Part shown: positions 17,107 to 62,386 of the stretch, piece after piece
Position numbering within the stretch: the stretch's first letter is position 1
Layout: each line of letters opens with the position of its first letter
Assembly (NCBI GenBank): GCA_036339465.1
Contig: JAYZAY010000059.1
Coordinates: 30,611-94,610, forward strand
Direction of reading: 5' to 3'
Source of the DNA: Myxococcota bacterium
GTDB taxonomy: Bacteria; Myxococcota; XYA12-FULL-58-9; JABJBS01
DNA: 64,000 nucleotides
Translations under genes and position numbers: made by a program
The notes under the pieces: model-generated
Database searches by the model: none
The model's input: only the letters and a program-made list of their open reading frames with translations
What the model was told of the DNA's origin: nothing

Positions 17107-18573
17107 CTATAAATCTTCAGGAAGCGCATATACCAAGGAGATAGGGGGATTTTCGGTCATTTTACTGATCGCCTCGAACCAAGGGGTGATTTGTAGCCCC
17201 TCTACGACCCAAAGTATCGGACTTTTTGGGGCCAAACTTAGAACCAGATGCGCCAAGACTCTCTCTTGGAAGAGTTTGACGATATGCCCATGGAATCCTC
17301 CAAGAATTGATTCCGGTAGGGTGAGTGTGACTTCGTCCACCTGGATTTCGTTGATATTTTGGGCGCCTTGGAGAATACCTGAAAAGGTTTCTACCAGTTG
17401 ATGGTGGTGAAATTCACTGTCGCTTAATTCATAGCCAAGCTCGTCCGAAATGGTAGGGATGAGGGTTTTTCTGAGTTGAAGAAGTAGTTGTTCAATGGAA
17501 AGCTCAGGGAGCCTGAGGGAGATCCCAGGGGCTTGTGGTGTATCAGCTGAATATTGATAGGCGCTAAATTCCCATAAACCTTGTCGAATATAAGTATAAC
17601 CGTCCTTCTTTTCCCTGTTTCCACCGAATTTCTCAAAAGCATATCGGCTCTCGGGAATGGCTGTGAGCCTAGGGTCACCAAAATCTAGAGTGTTGAAATT
17701 TTCGAGTTCAAAGTCAGGAACAATGCATTTGATTTGTAGATTGGTCTCGGTCGTTGACGATGGGAGTAATTGGGGCAGAGCTTCGTATGAGAATTGTTGT
17801 GTTCGCCCGTTTCCTAGGGCTTCGAAGACAGTGGTTGAAACCAGCTCTGGTTGTTCCCGGGTCAACAAACCGCAGTTTAAGAGTCGCGGCCCAAAAGTGC
17901 AGTCGAATTCAAGGATATTTGGAGTATCGCTTGCCAATGCTTCGGGTTCAGTTGTTCCCAGTGATTCAGCAGGTTCTTCTGCCTGGGAAAGCATTTCTTT
18001 GCTCTCTTGAGTGTGGCACGAGGTCTTTTGTTCGTGAGAGATTTCTGATTCGAGTTTTTCCTTCTGCATCAAGATTTCGAGGTCATTTGATGGGATTTTT
18101 TCTTCGATATTCCTGCGAAGACTCACAGGTTCATCTTGTTCTTCGAACAGTTGTCCGTAGAGGTCGGTCAGACTCTCTGCTTCGAATCGCGCGAGGTCGG
18201 GATTGGCCTCTCTCACCCCCCCTCCTGTGGCTTTGGGGAGATGAGCAATGAGATATCGCTCGATGTGGCGGGAAGCCTTTCCTGCGAATGATGAAAAATG
18301 GAGTCCGATTCCACTTGGTTGTCCGCTTTCATGGGCTTCGGAAAGATTTCGGAGCCAGTGAACGATTCCTATCCCTTGTATTTTCTCCTTGGGACGTTCC
18401 AACTCGAAGTTAAACCGAACGCTATCGCCGATTCGGGGTAATTCTCTGGTTTGAACAAACATTCCCGTGGCGGAGAGATCACGAATTGTGGCGATGACCA
18501 CGACCTGGCGATCCGGATAGCGCATGGTAATTGATATTGCGACAGGCACGCGCGGTGCCCCGGTTTTTTCCAT
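17107..18573 (-). CDS. PilZ-domain protein (c-di-GMP receptor candidate) with ~370-aa uncharacterised C-terminal region
   Basis: N-terminal PilZ motifs: R-rich start (RVPVAISITMRYPDR), DLSATGMFV (DxSxxG), IGLHFSSF. The rest is acidic, S/T/E/Q-rich with no recognised domain. Its start overlaps the alaS stop. Confidence 0.6.
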   Translation of the reverse strand: MEKTGAPRVPVAISITMRYPDRQVVVIATIRDLSATGMFVQTRELPRIGDSVRFNFELERPKEKIQGIGIVHWLRNLSEAHESGQPSGIGLHFSSFAGKASRHIERYLIAHLPKATGGGVREANPDLARFEAESLTDLYGQLFEEQDEPVSLRRNIEEKIPSNDLEILMQKEKLESEISHEQKTSCHTQESKEMLSQAEEPAESLGTTEPEALASDTPNILEFDCTFGPRLLNCGLLTREQPELVSTTVFEALGNGRTQQFSYEALPQLLPSSTTETNLQIKCIVPDFELENFNTLDFGDPRLTAIPESRYAFEKFGGNREKKDGYTYIRQGLWEFSAYQYSADTPQAPGISLRLPELSIEQLLLQLRKTLIPTISDELGYELSDSEFHHHQLVETFSGILQGAQNINEIQVDEVTLTLPESILGGFHGHIVKLFQERVLAHLVLSLAPKSPILWVVEGLQITPWFEAISKMTENPPISLVYALPEDL

Positions 18574-25063: not shown

Positions 25064-26842
25064 GTGATAAATAGAGATTCAGACTTGCCGGTGAATTCAA
25101 TGCACGGGCTTTTGCATATTGTCTATATCGGTTTGCTGGGACTTGGGGGCTGGTTTCTGCTTTTTATGATTCGAGACTTGCTACCGGGGCGATTTGAGCC
25201 ATGGCAGCAGGGTGGTGAGTTTGTTAGTGTATTGGGCTTGGTTACATGTGCTCGCTTGTTGGCCTTCCGGTATATGGGCTCGGCGCGCATAGCGTTGGAT
25301 TCGGTCTTTTATATCGCAATGGTTTTCATTTGGGGGACGTTGGTGGCCGCTTCTCTTGCCGCTTTAACGCTCACTATTGACGCGATTCTTAGGAACCCTG
25401 TGGAGCGCAGAAGTCGTGCGGTGACATATTATCCGCGCCTTCAGCGAGTCGCGGGGATTTTGTATAAGGGTGGCTTACCGGTTTTGGTGCTTATTTTCAT
25501 GGGGGCCTTATTCAGTGATGGGTGGATGCTGGGCTCCGACAACGTTTCACTTATCTGGATGCTCTTTATTTTCGCGAGCGGTTTTGTTTTTGTTCATTAT
25601 GTTTTGGTTGGATGGGGGCACTGGTTGGAAGGCGTAGAAACCGAAGCACTTGGTGATTCGATACCAAAGCTCATTGGGCAAGAAGTTTTTTTGATGCCTT
25701 TAGCTTTGGCCATGGTGTTGGCCTACCGGTACCAAGGACTTGGCTTTTTTCTCTTGTTGGGGGGCGTCGCTTTGATGATCAATGGGGTGATTCGTCGCCT
25801 GGTTATCGTGAGCGAAAAATCAATTCGAAGGGCTTCTGATTTACAAGCGCTCTATGAGGTTGGGCGATCGATGTCTTCGAGTCTTGAGGAAGATAAAATC
25901 GTTCGAAATTTGGCTGCTTCGGTACAAAAGTTGGTGGGTTCTAAATCATACTTTATGCTGGGGCGACTCTCTCAGGGGCGAGATACGGTTCATTGCGTGG
26001 TTTTTGATGGCCGTGGTGATGTGGAAGGAGAGCACTGTTTGCCTGTGGGCCTCAACTTGCCGACGAGAGTGCTCGAGTCTGGTTCACCGATCTTGATCGA
26101 CGATCTCAGATACGAATATGTGCGTTTTGTGGGAGGTGGTTCCTATGGAGACGGACGGTTTTTGTCGTGGCTGGGGGTTCCCATGAAGCTTTACGATGAA
26201 GCCATTGGGCTGATGGCTGTGAAGGGTAAGGTGATGGGGGCTTTTACGAAGGCTGATACAACGGTGTTGTCGGCGATTGCGGATCAGGCAGCCGTGGCAC
26301 TCGAAAATGCCCGACTATATGAAATGGCAACCGTAGACGGGCTCACAAAATTGTTTGTAAGGCGTTATTTTGACCAAAGGCTTCTAGAGGAGTGGCAAAG
26401 ATCACTTCGGTATGAGGCTTGTTTTTCAGTGCTACTATTTGATCTAGATAATTTTAAGAGAATGAACGATCAATATGGCCACCAAGTTGGCGATCAGGTT
26501 TTACGGATGGCGGCTGGGGTAGTTCGGCAAAATATGAGGAGGATGGATACGGCGGCTCGGTATGGGGGGGAAGAATTTGCTTGTATTTTGCCGGGAACTC
26601 AGGCTGGAGACGCCTTTCAGGTTGGAGAACGTATTTGTGCCGAACTTGCTGCAACTGAGATTACCACAAGCGTAGGTACCTTGAACGTTACGGCTTCGAT
26701 TGGTATCGCGTCTTCGGATTTAGAGGAAATGAGTGAGCCGGATAAGCTGCTGACACTTGCAGATGTGGCTTTATACGAGGCAAAAAACCGTGGAAAGAAC
26801 CAAGCTAGGTTGTATTCTAAGAAACTTAACAAGTTTGCTTAA
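25064..26842 (+). CDS. Membrane-anchored GAF-GGDEF diguanylate cyclase
   Basis: ~7 N-terminal TM helices, a central GAF-like region, and a C-terminal GGDEF domain with intact motifs (DGLTKLFVRRYF, RYGGEEFACILPG, ALYEAKNRGKN). Confidence 0.88.
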   Translation: MINRDSDLPVNSMHGLLHIVYIGLLGLGGWFLLFMIRDLLPGRFEPWQQGGEFVSVLGLVTCARLLAFRYMGSARIALDSVFYIAMVFIWGTLVAASLAALTLTIDAILRNPVERRSRAVTYYPRLQRVAGILYKGGLPVLVLIFMGALFSDGWMLGSDNVSLIWMLFIFASGFVFVHYVLVGWGHWLEGVETEALGDSIPKLIGQEVFLMPLALAMVLAYRYQGLGFFLLLGGVALMINGVIRRLVIVSEKSIRRASDLQALYEVGRSMSSSLEEDKIVRNLAASVQKLVGSKSYFMLGRLSQGRDTVHCVVFDGRGDVEGEHCLPVGLNLPTRVLESGSPILIDDLRYEYVRFVGGGSYGDGRFLSWLGVPMKLYDEAIGLMAVKGKVMGAFTKADTTVLSAIADQAAVALENARLYEMATVDGLTKLFVRRYFDQRLLEEWQRSLRYEACFSVLLFDLDNFKRMNDQYGHQVGDQVLRMAAGVVRQNMRRMDTAARYGGEEFACILPGTQAGDAFQVGERICAELAATEITTSVGTLNVTASIGIASSDLEEMSEPDKLLTLADVALYEAKNRGKNQARLYSKKLNKFA

Positions 26843-29650: not shown

Positions 29651-30316
29651 GTGATGTTAAGATATTGCTCTTCGGTCAATGCAGGTACGTTTGTAATTTT
29701 CTGCCTCATATTATTTTTTCCGGGTGCCGTGTTGGCTAAGGCCGTGGAGCAGCTAAAGATTGCGCCGTCATTTACATTGAAACTCATCTCACCGGATTCT
29801 CGTTCTACCTTGGTCTCTTTGGAGAAAGATATTTCATTGGGGACTGAACCTAGTCTTGGTTACGAAGGTGATACAATTCTCATCTTATTGGGAAAAATGG
29901 ATGTTACTTGGGATAGGGAGTTTGCGTTTTGGAGCGCCCTAAAACGGTCTTTTGCGGGAGCTTCTATTCGAATTATTTGTGTTTTGTTGGGGCCAAACCC
30001 ACAGGGTTTGAGATGGCTTCAACAACATCGGAAAACCTTAGAAGATTACCCGCTTCAATTGCTGTATGACCGTTATGGACTGGTTCGTTCTCGATACCAT
30101 CTGGATGGCCGAAACTTTGCGCTTTTTATTGTAAACAATGCCAGGAGAATTCTCTGGTCTAAGTTTGAATTTTCTGATCAGACCCGAATGGAATTTATCG
30201 AGCATTTGGGTTATCGATTGGGGCGTCCCATTGTAGGAAGAACTCCCGCTCCTTTGGTTGCTTGGTTCAAGAATGAAATGGAGGACCAAGGCATCAAGGT
30301 TCTTCCATCACAGTGA
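29651..30316 (+). CDS. Secreted thioredoxin-fold (TlpA/redoxin-like) protein lacking the CxxC active site
   Basis: Signal peptide (FVIFCLILFFPGAVLA). Redoxin-like order of elements (APSFTL...VSL...ILILLGKMDVTWDREF...IRIICVLLG...LLYDRYGLVRSRYHLDGRNFALFIVNN), but the WCxxC position reads TWDRE. The start directly abuts the lon stop. Confidence 0.45.
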   Translation: MMLRYCSSVNAGTFVIFCLILFFPGAVLAKAVEQLKIAPSFTLKLISPDSRSTLVSLEKDISLGTEPSLGYEGDTILILLGKMDVTWDREFAFWSALKRSFAGASIRIICVLLGPNPQGLRWLQQHRKTLEDYPLQLLYDRYGLVRSRYHLDGRNFALFIVNNARRILWSKFEFSDQTRMEFIEHLGYRLGRPIVGRTPAPLVAWFKNEMEDQGIKVLPSQ

Positions 30317-31754
30317 TCCTTCTTTTTTTGAAATCAATTGTTACTTTGTGAGGGTTGGCTGTTAATATCTCAACCTCGCTGGATAGGGTGCGCAATTTCG
30401 GATGCGATGCCTCGATATGGTGTTTTCCTTTTTCTAGATGAAGGGGAAGGAATGTTGGAGCTGTTCCTATGGCTCTTCCGTCGACGAACACATTGGTATG
30501 AGCTGGAGCATTTAAAGTTGTGGCGGTTTTCGTGGGGACCAGGGTGGGTATGGCAAGGCTCGAAGACGGGGATTGGTTGAGCCATATTCCCGACGCCAAA
30601 GCCACGAGTGCAATGAAAGCAATTAGAAATAGGCTTTTAAACGCAAAATTTCTTTCCAATGGGGCTTCGATATCATGGATGTTTTCCAACCGAGTTTGGA
30701 AGCCTTGGCTAAATGCCACCGCATCGGGGTCATCGGGAGCCAGTGCTCTTAATTGATTTCTGATTGCATCCACCCCAATGAGTTCTCCTTGAGCCAATTT
30801 ATTGCGAAGTAGGATTTTTGTGGATGCGATTCTTTTGTAACGGTCGTTGTCTTTAAAGCGGTGGGGATTTTCAACAAATTGTTCCAGGAGTGGTCCCCAA
30901 TCTGGGTAGTCTAATTTGGAAAGCTGTATTCGGAGTGTCTCGTGAATTGTGCTCATTGAGGATGGTCGCATACTTTCGTTGTATGAGAGACAATCCTGAA
31001 TCAATTTCGAAAATTCATGGGAGAATTCGGGACGGTATTCAGTGATTGGTACGGGACGGGTTTCCCTCATTGCTTGCATAAGGGCGTAGGGACTGGTGCC
31101 GGGGTATGCCAGTTTACCGGTTGAGATGAAATAGAGGAGGGCCCCCAGCGCAAAGATGTCTGTTTGTGCAGAGAGTTGAGCCTGGCGGAGTTGCTCTGGG
31201 GCCATGAAGCCGGGTGTACCTACTATTTCTGTGGGGGTAGCCGCGTCTTGTCCCATGAAGCCGTTGGCCTTGAAGCCTTTGGCAATTCCAAAATCGGCGA
31301 GAACGACGCGTTGACCGCTGATAAAAACATTTTCGGGCTTTAGATCTCGATGGACGATCCCAGCCACGTGTGCATGGGTGAGGGCTGAACTCAAACTTAA
31401 TCCGATGATGGCAATGGTTGTTTCCGGAAAAATTGGGATATCCCGGTGCAGGTCCCCAATATTTTTCCCTTCTAAGTATTCCATGACCAAGTAGTGGTGG
31501 TTTTCATTGGTGGTTCCGTGGTCAATACATTGAACGATATTGGGGTGTTCGAGGAGGGAAATGGCTTGGATTTCTCGTTGAAACCTGAAGTTGGCCCGTG
31601 TATCTTGCAGATGGCTTGGTTGAAAAACTTTGATGGCCACTTTGCGCTGAAGCTTTTCGTGGCGCCCCAGATAGACAAGCCCCGAGGAACCTCTGCCTAG
31701 ACCGGATTCAACGATGTATTCTCCAAATTTCTTGATGGTAGGTAGTTTCGACAC
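30294..31754 (-). CDS. Hanks-type Ser/Thr protein kinase with single TM helix and ~100-aa extracytoplasmic C-terminal domain
   Basis: GLGRGSSGLVYLG glycine loop, VAIK, HRDLKPENVF, DFGIAK, GTPGFMAPE. A hydrophobic segment (LFLIAFIALVALASGIWL) follows the juxtamembrane region. Confidence 0.9.
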   Translation of the reverse strand: MSKLPTIKKFGEYIVESGLGRGSSGLVYLGRHEKLQRKVAIKVFQPSHLQDTRANFRFQREIQAISLLEHPNIVQCIDHGTTNENHHYLVMEYLEGKNIGDLHRDIPIFPETTIAIIGLSLSSALTHAHVAGIVHRDLKPENVFISGQRVVLADFGIAKGFKANGFMGQDAATPTEIVGTPGFMAPEQLRQAQLSAQTDIFALGALLYFISTGKLAYPGTSPYALMQAMRETRPVPITEYRPEFSHEFSKLIQDCLSYNESMRPSSMSTIHETLRIQLSKLDYPDWGPLLEQFVENPHRFKDNDRYKRIASTKILLRNKLAQGELIGVDAIRNQLRALAPDDPDAVAFSQGFQTRLENIHDIEAPLERNFAFKSLFLIAFIALVALASGIWLNQSPSSSLAIPTLVPTKTATTLNAPAHTNVFVDGRAIGTAPTFLPLHLEKGKHHIEASHPKLRTLSSEVEILTANPHKVTIDFKKRRITVMEEP

Positions 31755-31768
31755 TGAGCTACTTTGAG

Positions 31769-32110
31769 TTATTTCGTTGTTTGAGGCAATGACGCTGATT
31801 TTAGGTCGAGGACGATTTCGCCCCGGTTTACGAGCTGAAGATGGTCTCGGATAATCCGTTTCTGGACATTGGGTCTCGATTTAAAGGCCTTAATATCTTT
31901 TTCTAGCGCGTCTACTTCGAGTACCAAGTTTGATAAATATTCTTCCTTTTCGTGAACAACTTTCCTGAGGGTTCTGTGTTTTTCTAGGCCATCTGGTCGC
32001 ACAAGGGAGTTGCCGATCCAATAAGAGCCCAATGCGATGCACGCCATGATGTAGATGGAGCGAAGAAAAGACATGATTGGTAGGATAGAATTTTCAATTT
32101 GCAAGAGCAA
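31769..32110 (-). CDS. FtsB/DivIC-like septum formation initiator family protein (TM + coiled coil); the true start is probably an internal Met (e.g. 32074)
   Basis: N-terminal TM helix, a coiled coil, then the conserved C-terminal motif (KRIIRDHLQLVNRGEIVLDL, compare FtsB ...ARNELSMTRPGETFYRL). ~100 aa. Confidence 0.5.
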   Translation of the reverse strand: MLLQIENSILPIMSFLRSIYIMACIALGSYWIGNSLVRPDGLEKHRTLRKVVHEKEEYLSNLVLEVDALEKDIKAFKSRPNVQKRIIRDHLQLVNRGEIVLDLKSASLPQTTK

Positions 32111-32204
32111 GAAAGTGTCGCCTTGCTTGTATGATTTCCTGAGAATTAATTGAAGTAAGAGAGCGAGCTAAATGGTGGGCCGATCGGACTTGGCTTAGAA
32201 TTGT

Positions 32205-32618
32205 TTAGTCTGTGGCAATGGCAAGGCTTTGAAACCCTATTTCCTTTGCCAAATCCATAATTGAAACCACGATACCATGTTGGGCTGTAGAGTCGGCTTC
32301 GATAATAAACACTTGTTCAATTTTTTCCTTATAGAGCCCACTTAATTTCTTTTGGAGCTCATTTTTTGACAAAGCCTCGCCTTCATAAACCATTCTACCC
32401 TCGGCTGTTACTGTCACCACAATTTGATGGTTGGTTCCAGTGGGGTTTGACTGATTCGCTCGCGGCAACTCCACTTTGATTCCAGAGTCTTGCACAAAAG
32501 TAGAGGTAATAAGGAAGAAAATCAGCAGGATGAAAACAATATCGATTAAGGGGGTAAGGTTGATTTCCGCATCTCTTTTACGGATTGCGCGTATCGAGAA
32601 GTTCATGGGTGGGCGCAT
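32205..32618 (-). CDS. exbD: Biopolymer transport protein ExbD/TolR
   Basis: INLTPLIDIVFILLIFFLITSTF TM motif with conserved Asp. 137 aa. Confidence 0.88.
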   Translation of the reverse strand: MRPPMNFSIRAIRKRDAEINLTPLIDIVFILLIFFLITSTFVQDSGIKVELPRANQSNPTGTNHQIVVTVTAEGRMVYEGEALSKNELQKKLSGLYKEKIEQVFIIEADSTAQHGIVVSIMDLAKEIGFQSLAIATD

Positions 32619-33250
32619 ACCTTGTCGATCAGTTTAAGGGCTCGCTCCTCCATCTCCAACAGAAGAAGATCTACGCGACCTTGGAGATATTTGTAGAAGA
32701 TGTAAGCGGGTATTGCGACACTGATTCCTACGGCAGTTGTAATGAGCGCCTGCCAAATACCGCTGGCGAAGAGAGATGGGTCACCGAGCCCATTGACCTC
32801 GACTTGCTGAAAAACACTCATCATTCCAATAACTGTTCCAAGAAGGCCAAGCAGTGGCGTGATGGCAGCACAGGTCCCCAGTATTTCGATATATTTTTCC
32901 AGTTGAGCTGCTTCGTATTTGCCTGTTTCTTCTACCAGCTCTTTGATTTCAGCCCGTTGTAGGGATTTTTGGCTCAGGGCAGCGGAGAAGACGTTGGCCA
33001 TGGGGTTTGAGCTTTCCTGGCAGAGTAGGAGAGCATCCGATACCCGACCATCTACAATGAGGCTCTCAATACGTTTGGTAAAAGTTTCCGGGATAATCCG
33101 GGACTTCTGCAAGTGCCAGAGGCGTTCGATGAATACAGCGACAGTGACAAGGGAGCACAGGCCGATCGGATAGATCAGAACGCCCCCCCTCGTTAATAGA
33201 TCCCACAACATAGTACGTACCTCGTGTGATACTGTGTACCCAATAATCAT
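32603..33250 (-). CDS. exbB: MotA/TolQ/ExbB proton-channel family protein
   Basis: Three TM helices. Conserved GLLGTVIGMMSVF and PAYIFYKYL motifs. Overlaps exbD by 16 nt. Confidence 0.88.
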   Translation of the reverse strand: MIIGYTVSHEVRTMLWDLLTRGGVLIYPIGLCSLVTVAVFIERLWHLQKSRIIPETFTKRIESLIVDGRVSDALLLCQESSNPMANVFSAALSQKSLQRAEIKELVEETGKYEAAQLEKYIEILGTCAAITPLLGLLGTVIGMMSVFQQVEVNGLGDPSLFASGIWQALITTAVGISVAIPAYIFYKYLQGRVDLLLLEMEERALKLIDKVCAHP

Positions 33251-33330: not shown

Positions 33331-33356
33331 GGGGCTCAAGGCTGCCCCTTTTTTTG
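33331..33356 (+). terminator. Intrinsic-terminator-like hairpin (GGGGC-8nt-GCCCC followed by T7) in the exbB/33536 divergent intergenic region
   Basis: Sequence ggggctcaaggctgcccc followed by ttttttt read directly. Only the + strand has the T-run in the right place. Confidence 0.35.
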
Positions 33357-33461
33357 TTGGTGTGTGGGTAATTGTCTGCATGTATTTGTCCATGCAAAAC
33401 CTCATCTCTTGATGCATTGCGTCTTATAAGTGCTTGAAACGGGAGATTTTTATTTTTTAAG

Positions 33462-33535: not shown

Positions 33536-33940
33536 ATGAGTCATGAGTCATTCGATAGGTATTTGGCTTCCAGATTTCACTTTGGTGAAGGTGTCATGGA
33601 GCAGGCCGCGGAGCGGCAAAACGAATACTCTCGAATTTTGATTGGCGCCATATTGTTGGAAATTGGCATGGTAACCCAAAGGGATCTCGATAGGGCCCTT
33701 GAGATCCAAATCAGGGAGGTTTGTCAGGCGGTGGTTGCTCGCCCCCGTCGTTTAGGAGAATTACTCATTGAGCAGGAGGTTGTTTTAGAAGAACAGTTGC
33801 AACGAGCGTTAGCAATCCAACGCCGTCGACGGCACATGGGATTGAGTGACATATTGGTTGAAATGGGAGCTCTCTCGCAGGAGAACTTGGATGAAGCAAA
33901 AGCCCAGTGGAACCAAGGTGGAGTCAGTTCAGTCGCATAG
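33536..33940 (+). CDS. Small standalone protein made of three MshEN/T2SSE_N-like repeats (putative c-di-GMP-binding module)
   Basis: Three copies of the ~24-aa motif RLGxxLLxxGxIxxxxLxxALxxQ: RILIGAILLEIGMVTQRDLDRALEIQ, RRLGELLIEQEVVLEEQLQRALAIQ, and GLSDILVEMGALSQENLDEAKAQ separated from it by 6 residues. 134 aa. Confidence 0.5.
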   Translation: MSHESFDRYLASRFHFGEGVMEQAAERQNEYSRILIGAILLEIGMVTQRDLDRALEIQIREVCQAVVARPRRLGELLIEQEVVLEEQLQRALAIQRRRRHMGLSDILVEMGALSQENLDEAKAQWNQGGVSSVA

Positions 33941-52548: not shown

Positions 52549-53102
52549 GGGTTTCCAGGCTTTCGTCCTTCGCGGTTTAGGGTGTCGATAACTCTCCGTG
52601 CTAGCACATGGTTCATACGGATCAAAGACCGTTGTCGTCCGGTTTCTGTATCGATAATGGGATCAACCTTAGAGCCTACGGCGCGCAAGAAGTCCTCGTT
52701 GGTGGTAAACGTTTTTTTCCAGAGGATTTTTCCGTCTTTTGTTTCTAGGGTGACTCGAACTTTCATATTGATGGTGTAGCTCTTAAATGAGCGATCGGCA
52801 TTGGCGAGAGAGGTGGCTCGGGTGTTGGAGTTAAGTATTTCACAGTGCAAAGTGCCGACCTGATCTGATGGACTGGATTTTGGGATTCCGATTCGGTTCA
52901 ACTCCCGTTGGAGTTCGAGGGTTAGGTGGGCGCTTGTCCCGACGATGGCTTTTTCTTTGACGGGGAGGACCTCGATGGCTTCCAAGCCGTGGGGTTTATG
53001 CTGGTATCCCCATTGATAGCTACAGGCAGACACACATAGAACCAAGGTGAGCACCAGTGTTCGTGCCGGAATCATTTTCAGCCGCAATTGTTTGTGAATC
53101 AT
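52545..53102 (-). CDS. lptE: LPS-assembly lipoprotein LptE
   Basis: Lipobox LCVSAC. ~170-aa protein directly upstream of holA, the conserved leuS-lptE-holA synteny. The fit to LptE is moderate. Confidence 0.6.
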   Translation of the reverse strand: MIHKQLRLKMIPARTLVLTLVLCVSACSYQWGYQHKPHGLEAIEVLPVKEKAIVGTSAHLTLELQRELNRIGIPKSSPSDQVGTLHCEILNSNTRATSLANADRSFKSYTINMKVRVTLETKDGKILWKKTFTTNEDFLRAVGSKVDPIIDTETGRQRSLIRMNHVLARRVIDTLNREGRKPGNP

Positions 53103-53662
53103 GAGCGATTTGTTTCGGTGAGAGGGCTGGTTTGGTTTGGGGTGACCTCTTCATTGACGAGTTTTGAGAGTGAGCGAAAGACTTCATTTTCTAGCAAATG
53201 TCTTTGGCGGGGGGTGGTATTGATGAATTTGAATCCGATCCGATTCATTTCAGGGGCATGCCAGATAAGTTTGGCTTGAAGCTCTAGGGTTTGTGGCACA
53301 AAGAGTTGATGCCACCGTAGGTGTTGGAGTTTGAATTCTAGATTTGAGATTGCCTTGGGCTGGAGATCCGTATCGTATAGAATACACGCGCCGGCCATAC
53401 AAATATCCCGAATGGCGATGGGATGGCATTTGTCTTCGTCTCTTAATTGACCGGATCTCTTGACTGGTATCCGGATATATTGCCGGTTTTCAAACGCAGG
53501 CTGCTTCACATCATATAAATAGGTGATAAACTCGAGATAAAGTTCATGCCAGCGTGCATTTTCCGGCGGGACTAATCTTGTTTGCGCGTTTTTACGCTCA
53601 AGACAGCGCAATTCTTGGAGGGACTTTCTTCGGTCGGCACTGGTGATTTCAGGTGTATCCAT
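53099..53662 (-). CDS. PilZ-like domain protein
   Basis: RQYIRIPVKR (RxxxR-like) and IRDICMAGACIL (DxSxxG-like) motifs, with a C-terminal IGFKFI. 187 aa. Its stop overlaps the lptE start. Confidence 0.45.
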   Translation of the reverse strand: MDTPEITSADRRKSLQELRCLERKNAQTRLVPPENARWHELYLEFITYLYDVKQPAFENRQYIRIPVKRSGQLRDEDKCHPIAIRDICMAGACILYDTDLQPKAISNLEFKLQHLRWHQLFVPQTLELQAKLIWHAPEMNRIGFKFINTTPRQRHLLENEVFRSLSKLVNEEVTPNQTSPLTETNRS

Positions 53663-59773: not shown

Positions 59774-60988
<1,215 letters not shown>

Positions 60989-61028
60989 GCGTAGACAGTC
61001 ATTCATACGTCGGCACCGAGACGTCATT

Positions 61029-61877
61029 TTGGTGGGTGCTATCCTGGTGGCGATTGGCGTCTTCGTTTCGGCGAAGTGGGATAGCCGTGCAGGGGAGAGT
61101 TGGCTCGGTCAAGTTGTCGAAACGGTTACCTACCCTTTTCATCTTATTGTTGATCGCACCTTGAATGGCATGAATTTTGTTTGGGATCGTTATGTCTATT
61201 TAGTTGGTGTCGTGGAAAAAAACGAGCAACTCGGTTCCGAAAATACAGCCTTGATACGAGAGCTGTCGGTGTTGAGTGAAGTTCGTGAGGAAAATAATCG
61301 TCTTCGGGAATTGTTGGCTCTTACCAAGCGATTGCAAAATTCACGGGCATATGTGGCCAGGGTTGTCGGCTTGTCGGTGAATCCTCTTTTTCGTTCCATC
61401 CGGATCGACATTGGTGAGTCCCATGGCGTTTTGGTGGGAGACGCGGTGGTGGTAGCCGAGGGCATTGTGGGGCGGGTCGCCGAAATTAATGGGGATGTTT
61501 CGGAGGTCATTTTGCTCCTCGATGCGAACCATTCAGTTGATGTTTTGGTGCAGCGGACGCGAGCTCGCGGTAGAGTGAAGGGACGGGGCGGCAATACTCT
61601 TGGCATCGAGGTGTCTCGTCTTTCGAGAACCGCAGCAGTTCAACCTGGTGATTTGATCGTGACCAGTGGCATCGGTAAAGTTTTCCCCCAAGGACTTCCA
61701 GTGGCGGTGGTGACCGAGGTCAAAACCAAAGGCTATGGGGTGCATAAAACCGTCGATGCTCGACCCCAGGTTGATTTTAGCAAATTGGAAATGGTGCTGG
61801 TGATTCTTGGGAGTGGTGACTTCACGGAAACGAGTGAGTCGCCCTCACCTTTGGCCGAGGGGAGTAAGGTCCGGTGA
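61029..61877 (+). CDS. mreC: Rod-shape determining protein MreC
   Basis: N-terminal TM, a coiled coil (ENNRLRELLAL), and a C-terminal beta domain with GDxVVTSGIGKVFPQGLPVAVV. Confidence 0.85.
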   Translation: MVGAILVAIGVFVSAKWDSRAGESWLGQVVETVTYPFHLIVDRTLNGMNFVWDRYVYLVGVVEKNEQLGSENTALIRELSVLSEVREENNRLRELLALTKRLQNSRAYVARVVGLSVNPLFRSIRIDIGESHGVLVGDAVVVAEGIVGRVAEINGDVSEVILLLDANHSVDVLVQRTRARGRVKGRGGNTLGIEVSRLSRTAAVQPGDLIVTSGIGKVFPQGLPVAVVTEVKTKGYGVHKTVDARPQVDFSKLEMVLVILGSGDFTETSESPSPLAEGSKVR

Positions 61878-62386
61878 AGCATGGTCTTGTCATTTGGTTG
61901 GCTTGGACATGTGTGGCTCTTCAATCCACCTTGGGTATTCGCTGGAACATCGCTGGCGTCATGCCCGATGTTGCGGTTGTCTTCGTTTGTTTTTGGGCGC
62001 TTCAACGTTCCTTTCTCTCTCTGAGCTTTGCCGCCCTTGGCCTGGGCGTAGCATGTGATGTCTTTAGTGGGGCCCCCTTGGGATTTCACGGCCTGAGTCT
62101 TTGTCTATGTGCTTTTGGAGTCAGGCAGACCACGGGTGCGTTTTCTAGGGGGGGGATTGTCTTTTTTGGAAGCGTGGTGGCATTGGTGACGGTGGCCCAT
62201 CATGGGCTGATGTATGGGATGTTATGGGGTGGTCGGGGTGATGCGTTTTTTTCGAGTTGGGCCACTGCAAGTTTGTTGCCGACTGGCTTTATCACGGGCT
62301 TGGTGGCAGTTTTATCTTACCCTGTGCTTTGTCGATTGGAAGCTTGGGTTCAACCTCCGCGTTCCGGAGCGTTGTTGTGGAACTAA
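61874..62386 (+). CDS. mreD: Rod-shape determining protein MreD
   Basis: ~170-aa polytopic membrane protein, positioned between mreC and mrdA. The start overlaps the mreC stop. Confidence 0.7.
   Translation: MKHGLVIWLAWTCVALQSTLGIRWNIAGVMPDVAVVFVCFWALQRSFLSLSFAALGLGVACDVFSGAPLGFHGLSLCLCAFGVRQTTGAFSRGGIVFFGSVVALVTVAHHGLMYGMLWGGRGDAFFSSWATASLLPTGFITGLVAVLSYPVLCRLEAWVQPPRSGALLWN

Follow-up and report, generated by a model that had tools for sequence, protein, structure and literature searches.

An ftsB locus with a linked PEGA-domain Ser/Thr kinase gene in an uncultured marine lineage of Myxococcota

Gene content and layout of the locus

The DNA analysed here is a 64,000-nucleotide (nt) stretch, referred to as the window, of contig JAYZAY010000059.1 from a Myxococcota bacterium (assembly GCA_036339465.1), and its element of interest is a group of four co-oriented genes on the minus strand. 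In their order along that strand they encode an ExbB/TolQ-like protein, an ExbD/TolR-like protein, a bitopic coiled-coil protein of about 100 residues and a Hanks-type Ser/Thr kinase. Together they make up the ftsB locus of a marine Myxococcota lineage that is uncultured, and the contigs recur in the marine samples JGI 3300009103 and ENA SUTE22. An earlier reading made without database searches (hereafter the sequence-only reading) had proposed an operon of these four genes with one convergent neighbour, and the open reading frames (ORFs) were found exactly where it had placed them: 32603-33250, 32205-32618, 31769-32110 and 30294-31754 on the minus strand, with the convergent ORF at 29651-30316. 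The gene identities that it had suggested (TolQ/ExbB-like, TolR/ExbD, FtsB/DivIC-like and Hanks kinase) were likewise supported by domain searches. The features, with their most probable starts, are as follows.

32603-33211, minus strand: exbB/tolQ-like gene; proton-channel subunit of a 5:2 motor, 202 residues with 3 transmembrane (TM) helices; up to 33250 in the longest ORF
32205-32606, minus strand: exbD/tolR-like gene; 133 residues from the ATG; the longest ORF, from 32618, has 137 residues
32075-32204, minus strand: exbD-ftsB spacer of 130 nt; 94 nt if ftsB starts at TTG 32110
31769-32074, minus strand: ftsB; bitopic product of 101 residues that has a TM helix at the N-terminus, a coiled coil and, at the C-terminus, the FtsB motif (RPNVQKRIIRDHLQLVNRGE)
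30294-31754, minus strand: gene for a bitopic Hanks-type Ser/Thr kinase; 486 residues, GTG start
about 30303-30530, minus strand: PEGA beta-sandwich of the kinase; residues 409-484, periplasmic
29651-30316, plus strand: TlpA/Redoxin-like secreted protein that has lost its CxxC; 221 residues, convergent with the kinase gene

The spacings given in the sequence-only reading, namely overlaps of 16 nt (exbB/exbD) and 23 nt (kinase/convergent ORF) and gaps of 94 nt (exbD-ftsB) and 14 nt (ftsB-kinase), are right for the longest ORFs; however, two of them change when likely start codons are considered. ATG 33211 is the probable start of exbB, for which the NCBI annotation also gives 202 residues, and the same annotation starts ftsB at ATG 32074. 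The start of exbD is probably its own fifth codon, ATG 32606, and this creates a 4-nt ATGA overlap with the exbB stop codon in place of the 16-nt overlap. The ATGA overlap is also present in four related loci (L001, L004, L014 and L023; loci of relatives are denoted by L or P numbers). The real spacings are therefore probably a 4-nt exbB/exbD overlap, a 130-nt exbD-ftsB spacer and a 14-nt ftsB-kinase gap, and translation of exbB and exbD is coupled. In relatives, exbD and ftsB are separated by 35-55 nt. A promoter and terminator scan of the window spacer detected neither a minus-strand terminator nor a promoter consensus, RNA folding gave no stable structure for it (z = -0.30), and an Rfam scan of the spacer and the locus returned no match. 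The 4-nt overlap, the 14-nt gap and a spacer of this kind make the packing operon-like, and co-transcription of all four genes is plausible on this basis.

Upstream of exbB, on the plus strand, positions 33331-33358 resemble an intrinsic terminator (GGGGC, an 8-nt loop, GCCCC and eight T). No plus-strand gene stops there, and the element could terminate an antisense or small RNA or could have arisen by chance.

The small ORF as an FtsB orthologue

The product of the small ORF is predicted to be FtsB/DivIC, a bitopic coiled-coil protein that is part of the FtsQLB complex of the divisome. It scores 20.9-21.2 bits against the Pfam family DivIC (PF04977; E about 3e-4), under the gathering threshold of 28.9 bits, and its syntenic orthologues exceed that threshold (41.6 bits in L004, 39.8 in L006 and 35.6 in L008). 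DivIC was the top family for all seven members of an FtsB alignment (A3), with a best E-value of 9.5e-12. When a profile of a second alignment (A2) was compared with solved structures, the top matches were FtsB chains, namely 8bh1_E (E 1.1e-3) and 25hr_E, both from Pseudomonas aeruginosa, and 8hhf_B from Escherichia coli. This match is modest in significance, yet FtsB chains rank first and are aligned over most of their length: the alignment spans the TM helix, the coiled coil and the C-terminal motif R-x-E-L-G-x-V-x-x-G-E, and covers residues 9-92 of 8bh1_E. The C-terminal FtsB motif is the part that binds FtsQ in solved complexes. Neither ftsL nor ftsQ was found in the window.

In both alignments the small syntenic proteins align end to end; their N-terminal segment is hydrophobic, and the stretch behind it is rich in heptads. 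The window copy is the most divergent member, with 23-29% identity to orthologues of its clade; its TM segment is moderately hydrophobic, under the Kyte-Doolittle cut-off of 1.6, and its cytoplasmic tail comprises about 5 poorly conserved residues. A single-sequence search with the 113-residue longest ORF recovered only itself and one fragment, so that the orthologues were reached through the neighbouring kinase and ExbB genes, and BLASTP gave no alignment with the FtsB of Paraliomyxa, the window copy being too divergent for pairwise detection. Scans of genomes and metagenomes with the FtsB alignment yielded 3 and 5 loci, respectively; this lineage count is small because each scan used a single peptide pattern.

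A TonB or TolA identity was also considered for the small ORF; profile searches to separate FtsB from TonB/TolA had been suggested along with the sequence-only reading. It was rejected, since the orthologues score as DivIC/FtsB and the same orthologue exists in loci without exbBD. No Pfam or NCBIfam match to TonB_C, TolA or TolA domain III was obtained for the window protein or for any orthologue. The TM helices of TonB and TolA carry an S-x3-H signature (SHLS), and in alignment A3 this signature is missing from the window copy, neither residue being in register. Some FtsB orthologues have S-x5-H, and the position is occupied by H, Q, S or N across the clade.

A bitopic kinase with a periplasmic PEGA domain

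The kinase matches Pfam Pkinase at 1.1e-51 (176 bits), its kinase domain being placed at residues 14-280, with an additional weak PEGA match at its C-terminus. Its catalytic residues, Lys42, H135-R136-D137 (the HRD Asp137), Asn142 and D154-F155-G156 (the DFG Asp154), are invariant in 21 orthologues, and judged by these residues the enzyme is predicted to be catalytically intact. Twenty full-length relatives with 31-44% identity have the same architecture. In an AlphaFold2 model of the full-length protein (pLDDT 85, from a 21-sequence alignment) the kinase domain (residues 1-280) is followed by a confidently folded four-helix juxtamembrane region (residues 287-360), one TM helix (about residues 367-392), a low-confidence linker and an eight-strand beta-sandwich (residues 409-484); the C-terminal domain modelled on its own reached a pLDDT of 83. 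PEGA (PF08308) was matched by 7 of the 20 orthologue C-terminal domains, the best at 4.6e-7, and the domain of the window protein itself scores 19.0 bits. The C-terminal domain is thus a periplasmic PEGA beta-sandwich, and the kinase and juxtamembrane domains are cytoplasmic. The extracytoplasmic C-terminal domain anticipated in the sequence-only reading is thereby given an identity, and a single TM helix precedes it. No match to a PASTA domain was found in the kinase; the PASTA kinase model NF033483 scores 211 bits against a cut-off of 450 bits, over the kinase domain only.

One may ask whether this is an anti-phage defence kinase of the PD-T4-6 type or of the Mad6 type of MADS that lies beside ftsB by chance, as PADLOC reports PD-T4-6 at 3e-66 and mad6 at 4e-63, and NCBIfam reports MAD6 at 7e-42. 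However, the PADLOC matches cover the generic kinase domain alone (residues 10-280), the NCBIfam MAD6 score of 144 bits is far under its cut-off of 460 bits, and the other genes of the locus have no PADLOC match. Moreover, the gene is a stable, syntenic chromosomal orthologue that encodes a TM helix and a PEGA domain, and it lies in a housekeeping region and not in a variable defence island. A defence role is on these grounds extremely unlikely.

Conservation of gene order among relatives

The sequence-only reading had named synteny in relatives as a test that could refute it. Thirteen lineages were comparable and were sorted into four groups (types A, B and C, and unlinked), and the ftsB-kinase linkage is kept in 11 of them. 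ftsB lies immediately upstream of the kinase gene in the window, L004, L014, L023, L008, L009, L013 and the P0024 locus; the gaps observed are -4, 3, 4, 6, 14, 34 and 49 nt, with 14 nt in the window and -4 to 49 nt in the 7 other lineages. In L011, L016 and L017 one gene for a 162-residue protein stands between the two, the L017 locus (ftsB, the inserted gene, kinase) being truncated upstream. The arrangement represents more than chance, as it is found again on independent contigs even though the kinases share only 36-44% identity, and the FtsB proteins only 23-36%, with those of the window. The inserted ORF (L011 8295-8783, L016 2339-2824, L017 348-815) contains cysteines, has no Pfam match and is 51-72% identical among the three lineages.

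Type A loci (window, L004/5, L014, L023, L011/15 and L016) have the order TrmL, ExbB, ExbD, FtsB and kinase, followed by convergent thiol-redox genes and Lon, and it is only in this subclade of 6 lineages that exbBD lies directly upstream of ftsB. Type B loci (L008/12, L009, L013/18 and the P0024 locus) are without exbBD and have the order roughly 500-residue lipoprotein, 152-residue lipoprotein, FtsB and kinase. The ftsB-kinase linkage survives this complete replacement of the upstream genes and forms the evolutionarily conserved core; exbBD is a lineage-specific upstream neighbour.

The lipoprotein-like pair in the exbBD position of type B spans L008 3610-5586, L009 3643-5571 and L013 190-2100; the larger gene encodes about 490-500 residues with weak BNR/propeller-like matches, and the smaller one 152 residues, and neither could be assigned to a family. 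The possibility that the two are divergent ExbB and ExbD was rejected, as they are lipoprotein-like, match neither ExbB nor ExbD in Pfam and show no similarity to the window by tblastn.

The ExbB-ExbD pair

Both proteins are clear members of their families, ExbB matching Pfam MotA_ExbB at 8.3e-32 (110 bits) and ExbD matching Pfam ExbD at 3e-33 (115 bits), each over the Pfam threshold. ExbB has three hydrophobic segments, and ExbD has a single TM helix with the conserved Asp in the motif TPLIDIV. The domains, the 3+1 TM helices and the TM Asp that characterise the 5:2 proton motors of the ExbB/TolQ-ExbD/TolR type are thus all present. In NCBIfam, ExbB scores 84 bits as TolQ (equivalog cut-off 221) and 57 as ExbB (cut-off 206), and ExbD scores 82.5 bits as TolR (cut-off 127) and 62 as ExbD (cut-off 123). 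Among solved relatives, ExbB matches TolQ (8odt) at 8e-12 vs ExbB at 9e-8, and ExbD matches TolR at 1.6e-9 vs ExbD at 7.6e-9. The sequences thus lean slightly towards TolQ/TolR, with all equivalog cut-offs missed.

Genes for TonB, TolA or Pal were not found anywhere in the 64-kb window, which extends the earlier remark that no TonB or TolA-Pal partner is adjacent, and neither tolA-tolB-pal nor tonB was found beside the orthologues in L004, L011, L019, L020, L021, L022 and L023. Myxococcus xanthus has a separate, complete tolQ-tolR-tolA-tolB-pal cluster (PMC3169522), and therefore an exbBD pair near ftsB need not be the Tol-Pal motor. Most likely, the window pair energises an unlinked partner of the TonB/TolA type.

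Outside type A the association with ftsB is loose. In type C (L006/7) the ExbB orthologue (62% identity) is located elsewhere, in a stand-alone exbBD pair (L019), and exbBD also occurs alone in L021. L020, L021 and L022 have exbBD orthologues at about 50% identity; in Paraliomyxa miuraensis (L020) the pair lies 2 kb upstream of ftsB and a GAF-GGDEF gene, with an opposite-strand gene inserted, and in Nannocystis (L022) it lies 2.6 kb from the same two genes on the opposite strand. This looks like an old, loosely kept neighbourhood and not an obligate operon, and the position of exbBD beside ftsB is probably a remnant of that myxobacterial neighbourhood, with no proof of a shared machine.

The sequence-only reading had gone further and coupled a motor driven by the proton-motive force to a divisome protein and a transmembrane kinase. 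In a fuller version of this idea, an ExbB5-ExbD2 motor would use the FtsB-like protein as a TonB/TolA-like transducer, or would act on FtsQLB, and the kinase would report on or control this activity. The order exbB-exbD-(bitopic long-helix protein) does mimic exbB-exbD-tonB and tolQ-tolR-tolA; it is conserved in the six type A lineages, and in Paraliomyxa and Nannocystis no more than 2-3 kb separate ftsB from the exbBD orthologues. TonB and TolA are missing from the 64 kb, and the pair is slightly closer to TolQ/TolR, a division-associated system, TolQRA being recruited to the division site. However, orthology of the small protein to FtsB is clear: it has the C-terminal FtsB motif, lacks a TonB_C or TolA domain and has no S-x3-H in its TM helix. 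The same orthologue occurs without exbBD in type B and type C lineages, the exbBD and ftsB units are on opposite strands in Nannocystis, and exbBD also occurs alone. With the exbBD linkage confined to type A, two lipoproteins in its place in the sister lineages and stand-alone pairs elsewhere, the coupling is not borne out, and a single machine of this kind is very improbable. If it did exist, the motor would act on the divisome activator FtsQLB via the TM helix of FtsB, in the place usually taken by TolA or TonB, and would provide an input powered by the proton-motive force to septal peptidoglycan synthesis or outer-membrane constriction with no TolA linked. The exbBD-ftsB neighbourhood, loose in the cultured Nannocystineae, offers a tractable test of a division role for orphan ExbBD.

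A possible division-associated role of the kinase

The proposal that we favour, and to which we would give an even chance, is that the genes are co-transcribed and that the kinase, encoded together with ftsB, serves as a signalling enzyme associated with the divisome. Under this proposal the four genes would be transcribed together; the kinase would be recruited to the septum, or activated there, via its TM helix and/or its PEGA domain, which would contact FtsQLB or septal envelope material; and it would then phosphorylate cytoplasmic targets, constituting a division-coupled signal. FtsB itself is an unlikely substrate, given that its cytoplasmic tail consists of so few and such poorly conserved residues.

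Several observations weigh against this proposal. In type C, ftsB lies 4 kb upstream of the kinase gene with unrelated genes between them, and the distant kinase relative in L010 has no ftsB nearby. A larger syntenic block is kept in all type A loci, and its downstream part in type B; the block includes TrmL, Aldh and others on one side and Trx/TlpA, HisRS, Lon and GGDEF genes on the other, with Lon 65-68% and Aldh 74% identical across loci. All kinase-linked relatives belong to a narrow clade of Myxococcota metagenome-assembled genomes, and because this clade shows such broad synteny, conserved adjacency counts for less than if it had been seen in different phyla, and some of it simply reflects phylogenetic inertia. 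An exhaustive search of 1.84 billion representatives with kinase residues 282-486 gave about 5 full-length matches, the others being to the PEGA part only, so that the kinase family is narrow. Furthermore, a Foldseek search of the PEGA model against the PDB returned nothing at E <= 1e-3. The sub-significant matches were to generic beta-sandwiches of small size, namely transthyretin-like domains of carboxypeptidases, and, weakly (E 0.015), to chains of 9k1u, the RtkS-PpkA complex; these fold matches support no functional claim.

The same observations bear on a simpler explanation, namely inherited gene order without shared function. Here ftsB would be a housekeeping gene flanked by ExbBD genes unrelated to it and by a member of the large myxobacterial set of Ser/Thr kinases, and the adjacency would persist only since the sampled relatives are close enough for broad synteny. 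Retention of the whole neighbourhood in type A and of the downstream block in type B speaks for it, as do the loosened linkage in L006, its absence in L010 and the solitary exbBD pairs of L019 and L021; the window is also a housekeeping region, with infB, ligA, alaS, lon, pgk, tpiA, secG, polA, holA and mreBCD. Nevertheless, the ftsB-kinase junction remains tight (-4 to 49 nt) despite both proteins being at about 30-40% identity, it outlasts the exchange of all upstream genes, and the slot after ftsB holds another membrane signalling enzyme in the mapped operon of M. xanthus. We therefore consider inherited order alone rather unlikely.

If the kinase is indeed recruited by the divisome, Myxococcota would have a recurring design in which ftsB is co-encoded with a membrane enzyme that turns the completion of cytokinesis into a cytoplasmic signal; Myxococcus would use a diguanylate cyclase for this, and the marine clade a Ser/Thr kinase. 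Division signalling by Hanks kinases, known from the PASTA kinases of Gram-positive bacteria, would then extend to diderms with a PEGA sensor, and the poorly understood PEGA domain would gain a concrete cellular context.

The convergent redox gene and other neighbours

The convergent ORF at 29651-30316 was noted in the sequence-only reading as a thioredoxin-fold protein lacking its CxxC, and comparison with the AhpC-TSA/Redoxin protein of L004 (24% identity, E 2e-11) agrees, the C-E-P-C of that protein being replaced by V-T-W-D. The window protein has an N-terminal hydrophobic, signal-like segment and no Pfam match, and its gene is probably a neighbour and not part of the module. In relatives (L004 8425-9629, L006 9267-11523, L008 8576-10760) an intact TlpA/Redoxin-like gene and a DsbD or thioredoxin gene sit between the kinase gene and HisRS/Lon. 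At this position the window has only the CxxC-less TlpA-like remnant, and the DsbD/Trx and HisRS genes are missing, which suggests local gene loss.

In most relatives a protein of roughly 280 residues is encoded convergently right after the kinase gene (L004 7494-8339, L008 7572-8438, L011 10359-11192 and L006 7840-8718, and also in L009, L013 and L014); it is missing from the window and L023. It has a sub-threshold N-terminal GYF_2 match (E 0.0016 in L004, 0.12 in L008), one TM segment and a conserved Cys-containing C-terminal domain.

On the other side, a plus-strand ORF of 134 residues (33536-33940), divergent from exbB, overlaps the 3' end of trmL by 12 nt and matches the MshE-N-like c-di-GMP-binding domain (NF053729, 6e-17, two stretches); by tblastn, none of the related loci has a counterpart. 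With this ORF and with two GGDEF and two PilZ proteins (17107-18573 and 53099-53662), genes connected with c-di-GMP are abundant in the window. Near its right end lies a rod-shape operon mreB-mreC-mreD (59792-62386, plus strand), whose MreB ORF has a roughly 65-residue N-terminal extension before the Pfam match, possibly a start called too long. Every 2-kb bin of positions 1-64000 has a positive GC skew (0.05-0.24), independent of the direction of its genes, and the AT skew is negative for the most part; strand asymmetry seems to be strong, and the entire window to belong to a single replichore.

Comparison with known systems

Operons of the type tolQ-tolR-tolA and exbB-exbD-tonB share with the window translationally coupled exbB/exbD homologues, and in each case the next gene encodes a bitopic protein that extends a long helix into the periplasm. 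However, the third gene encodes TolA or TonB in those operons and FtsB in the window, and unlike the Tol and Ton operons the window exbBD has no gene for TolB, Pal or a TonB-dependent receptor nearby. The FtsB proteins of E. coli and P. aeruginosa (8hhf, 8bh1) have the length class, topology and coiled coil of the window FtsB, together with the C-terminal motif E-x-R-x-R-x-E-L-G-x-V-x-x-G-E; the window copy differs from them in its unusual divergence, which puts it below the Pfam threshold, and in its genomic context.

The PASTA kinases of Gram-positive bacteria are associated with the septum and linked genetically or functionally to cell division. PknB, StkP and PrkC have the same bitopic build as the window kinase, in which a juxtamembrane region and one TM helix connect a cytoplasmic Hanks domain to a sensor outside the cytoplasm, and a genetic or functional link to cell division is common to both. 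The ectodomain of the window kinase, in contrast, is a single PEGA beta-sandwich of roughly 75 residues with no PASTA, the organism is a diderm, and the neighbouring gene is ftsB and not pbpA, rodA or pstP.

The closest precedent comes from M. xanthus, where DmxA, an inner-membrane diguanylate cyclase (6 TM helices, two GAF domains and GGDEF), is recruited by the divisome and is encoded in an experimentally mapped operon with ftsB (MXAN_3705 region), an arrangement conserved in Myxococcales (PMC11255338). The module had been called uncharacterised in the sequence-only reading, and in view of this experimentally described operon it is less so than supposed. Proximity labelling of DmxA enriched the Ser/Thr kinases Pkn1, Pkn9, MXAN_4700 and MXAN_2077 (PMC11255338, Table S1). 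In our own comparison, ftsB followed by a GAF-GGDEF gene was also seen in Paraliomyxa and Nannocystis.

The window itself has, at 25064-26842 on the plus strand and about 5 kb from the kinase gene, a gene for a 592-residue protein with about six N-terminal hydrophobic segments, GAF and GGDEF. This is the same general build as that of DmxA, and over the GAF-GGDEF part the protein shares 37% identity with the cyclases encoded beside ftsB in L020 and L022. In L004, L008, L009 and the P0024 locus, too, the conserved block ends with a GAF-GGDEF gene, and the window gene may be a displaced dmxA orthologue.

A literature search found no paper that connects exbD and ftsB, and none for myxobacteria that connects ftsB and a Ser/Thr kinase. 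The ftsB-dmxA operon and the window locus belong to the same phylum, in each of them the gene immediately after ftsB has the same orientation and encodes a signalling enzyme of the inner membrane, and in both the arrangement is conserved in related species. They differ in the enzyme, which in the window is a bitopic Ser/Thr kinase of the Hanks type carrying PEGA in the periplasm and in M. xanthus a 6-TM diguanylate cyclase with two GAF domains and GGDEF, and in the exbB-exbD pair that precedes ftsB in the window; the window locus, moreover, is known from its genes alone. All four protein families are known, and the locus is a variant of a known myxobacterial theme in which ftsB is paired with a membrane signalling enzyme.

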